Shown here: positions 24,717-25,102 of the stretch, one piece after another
How positions within the stretch are numbered: the first letter of the stretch is position 1
Layout of the letters: the number at the start of each line of letters is the position of its first letter
Assembly: GCA_951406725.2 (NCBI GenBank)
Contig: OX597818.1
Span: forward strand, 44,082,001-44,146,000
DNA length: 64,000 nt
Direction: 5' to 3'
Source of the DNA: Octopus vulgaris
Lineage: Eukaryota
Position numbers and translations under genes: made by a program
The notes under the pieces: model-generated
What the model was told of the DNA's origin: nothing
What the model saw: the letters and a program-made list of their open reading frames with translations, nothing else
Databases searched by the model: none

Positions 24717-24995
24717 ATCATGATGATCATCATTTAATGTCCGCTTTCCATGCTAGCATGGGTTGGACGATTTGACTGAGGTCTGGCGAACCAGACTCCA
24801 ATCTGATCAGGCAGAGTTTCTACAGCTGGATGCCCTTCCTAATGCCAACCACTCTGAGAGTGTAGTGGGTGATTTTATGTGCCACAGGCATGAGGGCCAG
24901 TTTGGTGGTACAGGCAACGGCCACACCCAAATGGTGCTTTTTACGTACCACCTGCACAGGAGCCAGTCCAGCGGCACTGGTGATGACCTCGCTCG
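24717..24995 (-). mobile_element. (ATG)n-tailed RTE-type 3' module (OK-SINE-like), fused to U6
   Basis: Shared core GAGTGGTTGGCATTAGGAAGGGCATCCAGCTGTAGAAAC...CATGGAAAGCGGAC.TTAAA(TGA)n, seen more than 12 times in the window. Confidence 0.9.
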
Positions 24996-25046
24996 AAAAA
25001 TATGGAACGCTTCACGAATTTGCATGTCATCCTTGCGCAGGGGGCC

Positions 25047-25086
<40 letters not shown>

Positions 25087-25102
25087 ATTGCCGAAGCAAT
25101 AC
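24996..25102 (-). pseudogene. U6: Full-length U6 snRNA retrocopy
   Basis: Minus strand reads GTATTGCTTCGGCAATACATATACTAAAATTGGAACGATACAGAGAAGATTAGCATGGCCCCCTGCGCAAGGATGACATGCAAATTCGTGAAGCGTTCCATATTTTT, with the ACAGAGA box, AGC triad and T5 end. Upstream is LINE ORF, with no TATA box at -30. Confidence 0.96.

Follow-up and report, generated by a model that had tools for sequence, protein, structure and literature searches.

The locus at positions 24717-25102 of the window (the whole 64,000-nt stretch of the Octopus vulgaris genome analysed here) is a chimeric retrocopy in which a U6 snRNA is fused to the 3' end of a LINE, an event of an already described kind rather than a new mobile-element family. 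The two parts were likely inserted in one event, and the variety of partners and junctions among the U6 fusions elsewhere in this genome points to recurrent, independent formation of such chimeras. The Rfam scan of the window yields a single RNA family, U6 (RF00026), at 24996-25102 on the minus strand, with a score of 109.2 bits and model positions 1-105 of 105 covered, so that the copy is full-length; compared with L032, a candidate source gene, it has 2 differences over its 107 nt. The five-T end of this U6 directly adjoins, with a spacer of zero, the 279 3'-terminal nucleotides of the 3' UTR of an RTE-type LINE (24717-24995, minus strand), a segment that has the orientation of U6, is 5'-truncated at the U6 junction and ends in a degraded (ATG)n tail (24717-24733, minus strand) whose last bases overlap the target. 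The Rfam match and the spacerless join bear out the earlier note, in which a 107-nt U6 fused at its T5 end to a module of about 280 nt in one orientation had been described. Two T residues (24996-24997, minus strand) are assignable to either U6 or the donor, that is, the junction has a 2-nt overlap, because two T also precede the join in all 29 relatives of the module. Upstream of the U6 copy lies the sequence of the host LINE, and the U6 promoter motif is missing; with the external promoter lost and the T-tract terminator placed ahead of the tail, the U6 copy would be transcriptionally dead.

The insertion lies within an older LINE on the same strand. The 5' half of the remnant (25104-25463, outer end approximate) was delineated by tblastx against donor-family copies and corresponds to the C-terminal region of the reverse transcriptase (RT), with broken frames; the 3' half (24558-24716, outer end approximate), in which the frame is continued, was delineated by tblastx and by comparison with relatives. 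Excision of 24717-25103 renders the host frame KGKLYDTY-VRTVVLHGSETW continuous. From 602 candidate copies of the host family, 40 were scored and the closest 19, taken from outside the window, were used for comparison: in 13 of these the alignment spans both flanks and is shifted by exactly -1, and the remaining six have indels of their own or end early. This offset implies that no target bases were lost and that a single T (25103, minus strand), missing in the host-family copies, is extra, in agreement with the prior proposal that removal of U6 and module restores the host frame with one surplus T. It had also been suggested that the target was a TATG matching the tail, which is plausible and falls short of proof, given that TATG occupies the site in only 2 of the 19 relatives and TGTG in most of them. 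Any target-site duplication at the locus is limited to about 2 nt.

A similarity search with the module returned 5932 first-look candidates, with the best relatives 93-95% identical, and the longer copies reach into the C-terminal part of an RT similar in kind to that of the host LINE. The (ATG)n tail is present in 29 of 29 relatives, so the 3' end is a short tandem repeat rather than poly(A); compared with the majority of these relatives, the module carries 13 differences in 266 columns, eight of the CpG type and five non-CpG. The longer members of the donor family encode an endonuclease, an RT and a PHD-like finger in a single frame, and in one of them (L239) PF03372 (APE-type endonuclease), PF14529 and PF00078 (RT) were all detected within one frame; no long ORF that could represent ORF1 was found in the 0.5-0.95 kb of upstream sequence common to five donor copies. 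By its architecture, and by motifs that we take to be characteristic, the donor would be a LINE of the RTE type; the 120 listed homologues of the donor RT bear no clade names, and the solved structures available for comparison comprise L1, R2 and group II intron RTs only; neither source gave an RTE or R4 name. As far as a likeness by description goes, the donor family resembles RTE-2_OV, an octopus RTE LINE with one ORF of about 1100 aa, an endonuclease, an RT, a zinc finger and long UTRs (PMC9115989). Domain order, tail and flanks all fit the view that an element built like an RTE produced the chimera, which landed inside an older LINE of like kind. Copies of the module free of U6 also stop near the U6 breakpoint, two of them (L017 and L026) within 7 nt, and another in the window itself at 54025. 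The window contains further U6-free copies of the donor 3' UTR at about 13 places (17223-17479, 31872-32166 and 54025-54314 included), with 74-86% identity, and some of these carry internal tandem repeats of 63-67 nt; at 61286-62046 there is an (ATC)n array of about 254 units, the opposite-strand form of the (ATG)n tail unit.

A similarity search with U6 gave 829 first-look candidates, and an exact 15-mer from its 3' end has 247 matches in the genome (control, 2). The first 100 matches in positional order, corresponding to 98 distinct sites, were classified by script and then corrected by eye, and 76 of these 98 U6 3' ends are fused to parts of retroposons, all 76 in the same orientation. Full-length SINEs joined at their natural 5' start make up 41 of the partners (33 SINE-A, 7 SINE-B and 1 SINE-C, labels coined here); the others are short tails of about 50 nt (23), RTE elements (6), truncated SINE-A (2), and elements that, from motifs in the translated sequence, we presume to be CR1-like (2) and R4/Dong-like (2). 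The remaining sites comprise one U6 followed by another U6, 18 non-chimeric copies and three unclear cases. The U6 portion is shorter than 20 nt in two of the 76 chimeras (L101 and L112). With exact-pattern searches of the genome, 71 U6 junctions at the SINE-A start and 64 with short tails were detected (controls, 0), that is, at least 135 junctions in these two classes. Among the best 30 U6 loci, 26 are chimeric, compared to none of the best 30 U2 loci, a control that is weak because the 30 best-scoring loci favour true genes; the U2 loci (L208-L237) include many near-identical gene copies, clustered and dispersed, with flanks in common, and none of the 30 has a retroposon part downstream.

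Several individual chimeras are worth describing. In two cases (L112 and L138), the partner of U6 is an R4/Dong-like element with a (TAA)n tail, the second of these within a TAA array; a Pfam search with the first gave only a weak RT match (E = 0.036). Another locus (L058) is a three-part chimera that consists of U6, a second U6 and a CR1-like tail, as expected of either a double jump or a double ligation. The 5' ends of U6 in 75 chimeras of the positional sample are bimodal, with 48 at position 16 or before, 27 at positions 55-91 and none between, which suggests a polymerase stop in mid-U6. The middle of U6 is structured or modified. The short-tail motif (L158-L187) is present in 7989 exact copies, and its breakpoint is used by U6, by several U6-free copies and by three or four other SINE heads, which marks it as a site where SINE modules are exchanged in general. 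No tRNA was detected in the window by ARAGORN, nor in three SINE heads by Rfam.

Arrival of U6 and the module as one unit is the reading that we consider likely. Both parts are comparably young (2 differences in 107 nt of U6, 5 non-CpG differences in 266 columns of the module) and the host LINE is old, being 73-81% identical to its relatives. In the 64 chimeras for which a tail could be located (nine further chimeras had none within the sequence used; the Dong-like and SINE-C cases are outside the set), duplications of at least 10 nt around U6 and partner together were found in five, against a mean of 0.17 and a maximum of 1 in 30 shuffles, although two of the five sit in a repeat context; at 7 nt, there is no clear excess (11 of 64, with a shuffle maximum of 11). 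A further chimera outside this sample (L053) has a 14-nt duplication that encloses both parts. The single-event interpretation proposed in the earlier note is supported by the similar ages and by the rejoining of the flanks without loss in 13 of 19 relatives. Two separate insertions, with the LINE tail and U6 coming independently to one spot, appear very unlikely: the module is, to be sure, highly abundant in the genome, the locus shows no enclosing duplication beyond about 2 nt, and the empty site is unseen, since contigs from four sequencing runs over the module and the 3' flank end at 24686-24692; yet this scenario has to contend with the way U6 and its partner abut exactly, with a common orientation, at 76 of 98 sites, the duplications that enclose both parts, the lossless rejoining of the host flanks, the similar age of the two parts, and the fact that in none of the 64 chimeras is the 3' end of U6 repeated after the tail. 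We regard as extremely improbable the fusion of a U6 copy to a repeat by an assembly artefact. Of 24 sequencing runs listed, 20, from five organisms, contain part of this stretch, with no RNA run among them. None of the contigs from the four runs bridges the junction (compared with the unique flank, they show 0-2 differences in three runs and 20 in the fourth), but the private mutations in both U6 and the module, the collinearity of the flanks with the host family and the genome-wide recurrence of the same architecture all speak against an artefact.

Whether the locus is a one-off or a member of a U6-headed SINE family was left undecided when it was first described, and tabulation of the U6 3' flanks across the genome, which had been called for at the time, yields variable junctions and neither of these answers. 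A one-off is incompatible with the 76 chimeric U6 3' ends among the 98 sampled, with their many partners. Membership in a self-propagating U6-headed SINE family is highly improbable as well. In its favour, a search with the junction pattern gave nine matches (control, 3), three of which represent U6 on the donor 3' UTR at the same base, that is, two other U6 copies join the donor LINE at a position identical to that seen here; furthermore, a published octopus genome annotation lists automated SINE classes 'U' and 'U-L1', with no description in the available part of the text (PMC13282606). However, the partners of the three U6 copies at this common breakpoint are only 75-81% identical, and their heads differ in length (107, 94 and 28 nt) and in sequence variant; the eight U6/RTE chimeras have six breakpoints, one of them inside the RT region; and a parent LINE with a matching 3' end is abundant, as the 5932 candidates attest, with full donor elements present. 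Of the 50 chimeras whose 5' end is intact, none retains the upstream promoter motif of U6, as opposed to 7 of 14 non-chimeric copies, the motif having been derived from the candidate genes themselves. Each of the three U6 variants is found paired with full-length SINE-A, SINE-B and short tails, and the spacers vary across the 71 SINE-A and 64 short-tail junctions. The multiplicity of partners, the variable junctions, the lack of the promoter motif and the mixture of variants hence indicate recurrent independent events rather than a family. A family of the SINEU type, characterized by master copies with a common junction and partner and by the lack of a parent LINE, was also considered and rejected: there is no common junction and partner here, and a parent LINE exists.

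How was the fusion made? The scenario that we judge to be the probable one, and prefer to ligation of the two RNAs, is a single retrotransposition event in which the RT of the LINE jumped from its own 3' end sequence onto the U-tract of U6. Reverse transcription of the donor LINE RNA would start at the target, primed via its ATG tail, and would stall about 280 nt in, where U6-free copies end too; the two terminal A residues of the cDNA would then pair with the terminal U residues of U6, and the RT would copy U6 through to its 5' end and add one untemplated base, which would account for the extra T. The other chimeras likely arose independently by a similar process. The features of the R2 enzyme are relevant in this context: jumping by this enzyme requires untemplated addition, mostly of A, and proceeds best with an overhang of 1-2 complementary bases (PMC8857657), so that addition of A in the R2 manner, combined with a short complementary overhang, would favour a U-ended acceptor. 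Jumping is favoured by three observations, namely that U6-free SINE copies start within a few bases of the join in 41 of 76 cases, that, of the 11 internal breakpoints for which the upstream sequence is known, 8 carry extra bases other than T, and that breakpoints are shared with U6-free copies and other heads. Some points run counter to it. The join at the present locus is clean, with five T and no added base, as ligation also gives; the extra bases elsewhere may stem from flanks of the source loci, other parents or 3'-extended U6; and most chimeras lack a clear duplication, as the counts at 7 nt show.

The alternative, which we consider possible and distinctly less probable, is that RtcB first attached U6, through its 2',3'-cyclic phosphate, to the 5'-OH of a cleaved LINE RNA, after which the fusion RNA was retrotransposed via the LINE tail. 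This is a route demonstrated experimentally for U6/L1 in human cells (PMC6789731); the octopus genome encodes RtcB (five collinear family matches on one contig), the T-tract of U6 is intact without an extra base at this locus, and the recurrent breakpoints could be nuclease sites. The preference for U6 and not U2 fits ligation equally well. Nevertheless, RtcB joined U6 to 5'-OH RNAs and did not ligate those with a triphosphate (0 of 26 full-length products; PMC6789731), and SINE RNAs, judging from their A- and B-box-like motifs, would be Pol III transcripts with a 5' triphosphate; a 5'-OH would not be expected at the SINE 5' starts where 41 of the 76 sampled joins are located. The additional bases at 8 of 11 internal breakpoints also weigh against ligation, as does the clustering of breakpoints and their use by U6-free copies, unlike the human U6/L1 fusions, in which no preferred L1 site was observed (PMC6789731). 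The base that follows the U-tract was inspected as well: 16 C against 1 G were counted, and a hand count of the first base at the 71 SINE-A-start junctions gave 26 C, 2 G and 43 A. This excess of C is not specific to jumping because U6-free SINE-A copies show the same C (7 of 15), and for the same reason G-U wobble priming as its cause is kept as a lead only. The possibility that the short tails begin with a self-cleaving ribozyme was considered in a comparison by eye with HDV and hammerhead motifs, and was dropped.

The template-jumping scenario lends itself to a broader formulation, to which we give somewhat less than an even chance, namely that U6 is a general landing template, so that RTs from at least three non-LTR clades (RTE, CR1-like and the restriction-endonuclease R4/Dong-like elements) switch to its U-tract once they have completed their own template or stalled on it, mostly at full-length SINE 5' ends. 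If this is correct, the present set would be the first large catalogue of invertebrate U6 chimeras and would add a new clade of elements that make them, and ligation by RtcB would be shown in vivo to be a non-universal route.

U6 chimeras as such are well documented in vertebrates. In platypus and Anolis, the fusion partners of U6 comprise LINEs (L1, L2 and RTE-like) as well as SINEs, the latter in six cases in Anolis, and U6/Alu fusions are called rare; three Anolis chimeras are of the U6/RTEX-2 type, and it was concluded that L1, L2 and RTE elements all make U6 chimeras (PMC4476161). The involvement of the RTE machinery, of which no report was known when the locus was first described, is therefore not new. 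The vertebrate U6/LINE chimeras and those described here share a U6 with a T-tract followed by a 5'-truncated LINE or SINE in the same orientation, short or no duplications with non-L1 clades, and some 5'-truncated U6 heads (PMC4476161). The differences are that the host is an octopus, whereas that survey covers vertebrates (the word 'invertebrate' occurs 0 times in the accessible text), and that SINE partners dominate and R4/Dong-like partners occur; the location of most SINE joins at the natural start may be a further difference (PMC4476161). The human U6/L1 chimeras likewise have a U6 with 4-8 T fused directly to a 5'-truncated LINE, and RtcB is present in both hosts; in the human set there is no preferred site, in contrast to the clustering, often at SINE starts and often with extra bases, that is seen in the octopus (PMC6789731). 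The crocodilian SINEU elements, headed by U1 or U2, resemble the octopus chimeras in combining an snRNA head with a retroposon tail, but have master copies and no LINE with their 3' end, as opposed to the abundant parents and the lack of a common junction here; criteria that separate SINEU from independent chimeras are given in the same work (PMC4494074). Mammalian L1 chimeras have been catalogued (PMC11838501), and swapping of SINE modules in molluscs has been discussed, U6 being unmentioned in the available portion of that text (PMC4758252). Among openly accessible titles and abstracts, as distinct from subscription papers and Repbase reports, none was found that deals with U6 chimeras in any invertebrate, octopus and other molluscs included. 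What may be new is the occurrence in an invertebrate, the size of the set, the prevalence of SINE starts as joining points, and R4/Dong-like elements as partners.

Although the locus itself is a dead retrocopy, it provides entry into a genome-wide set of at least 135 junctions that bears on the open question of whether U6 chimeras originate through template jumping by the polymerase or through prior ligation of RNAs. The joins at SINE starts, the extra bases and the breakpoints common to U6-free copies translate into predictions that are testable by mapping of RNA ends. The set further illustrates the swapping of SINE heads and tails, and the automated 'SINE/U' labels in cephalopod annotations may denote collections of independent chimeras.

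The census also uncovered U6 copies of other kinds. Candidate U6 genes form a tandem cluster of seven at about 139.42 Mb of contig G000:C1 (L068-L074), in addition to solitary candidates (L032 and L044); these candidates represent three sequence variants and have an upstream motif and a TATA-like box in common. A separate group consists of fold-back copies, in which two head-to-head pieces of U6 each have the same flank on their 3' side, with arms of 114-208 nt that are 97-99% complementary in three cases (L052, L117 and L144); further copies of this type are L056, L083, L108 and L127, and some of the flanks are found on several contigs.
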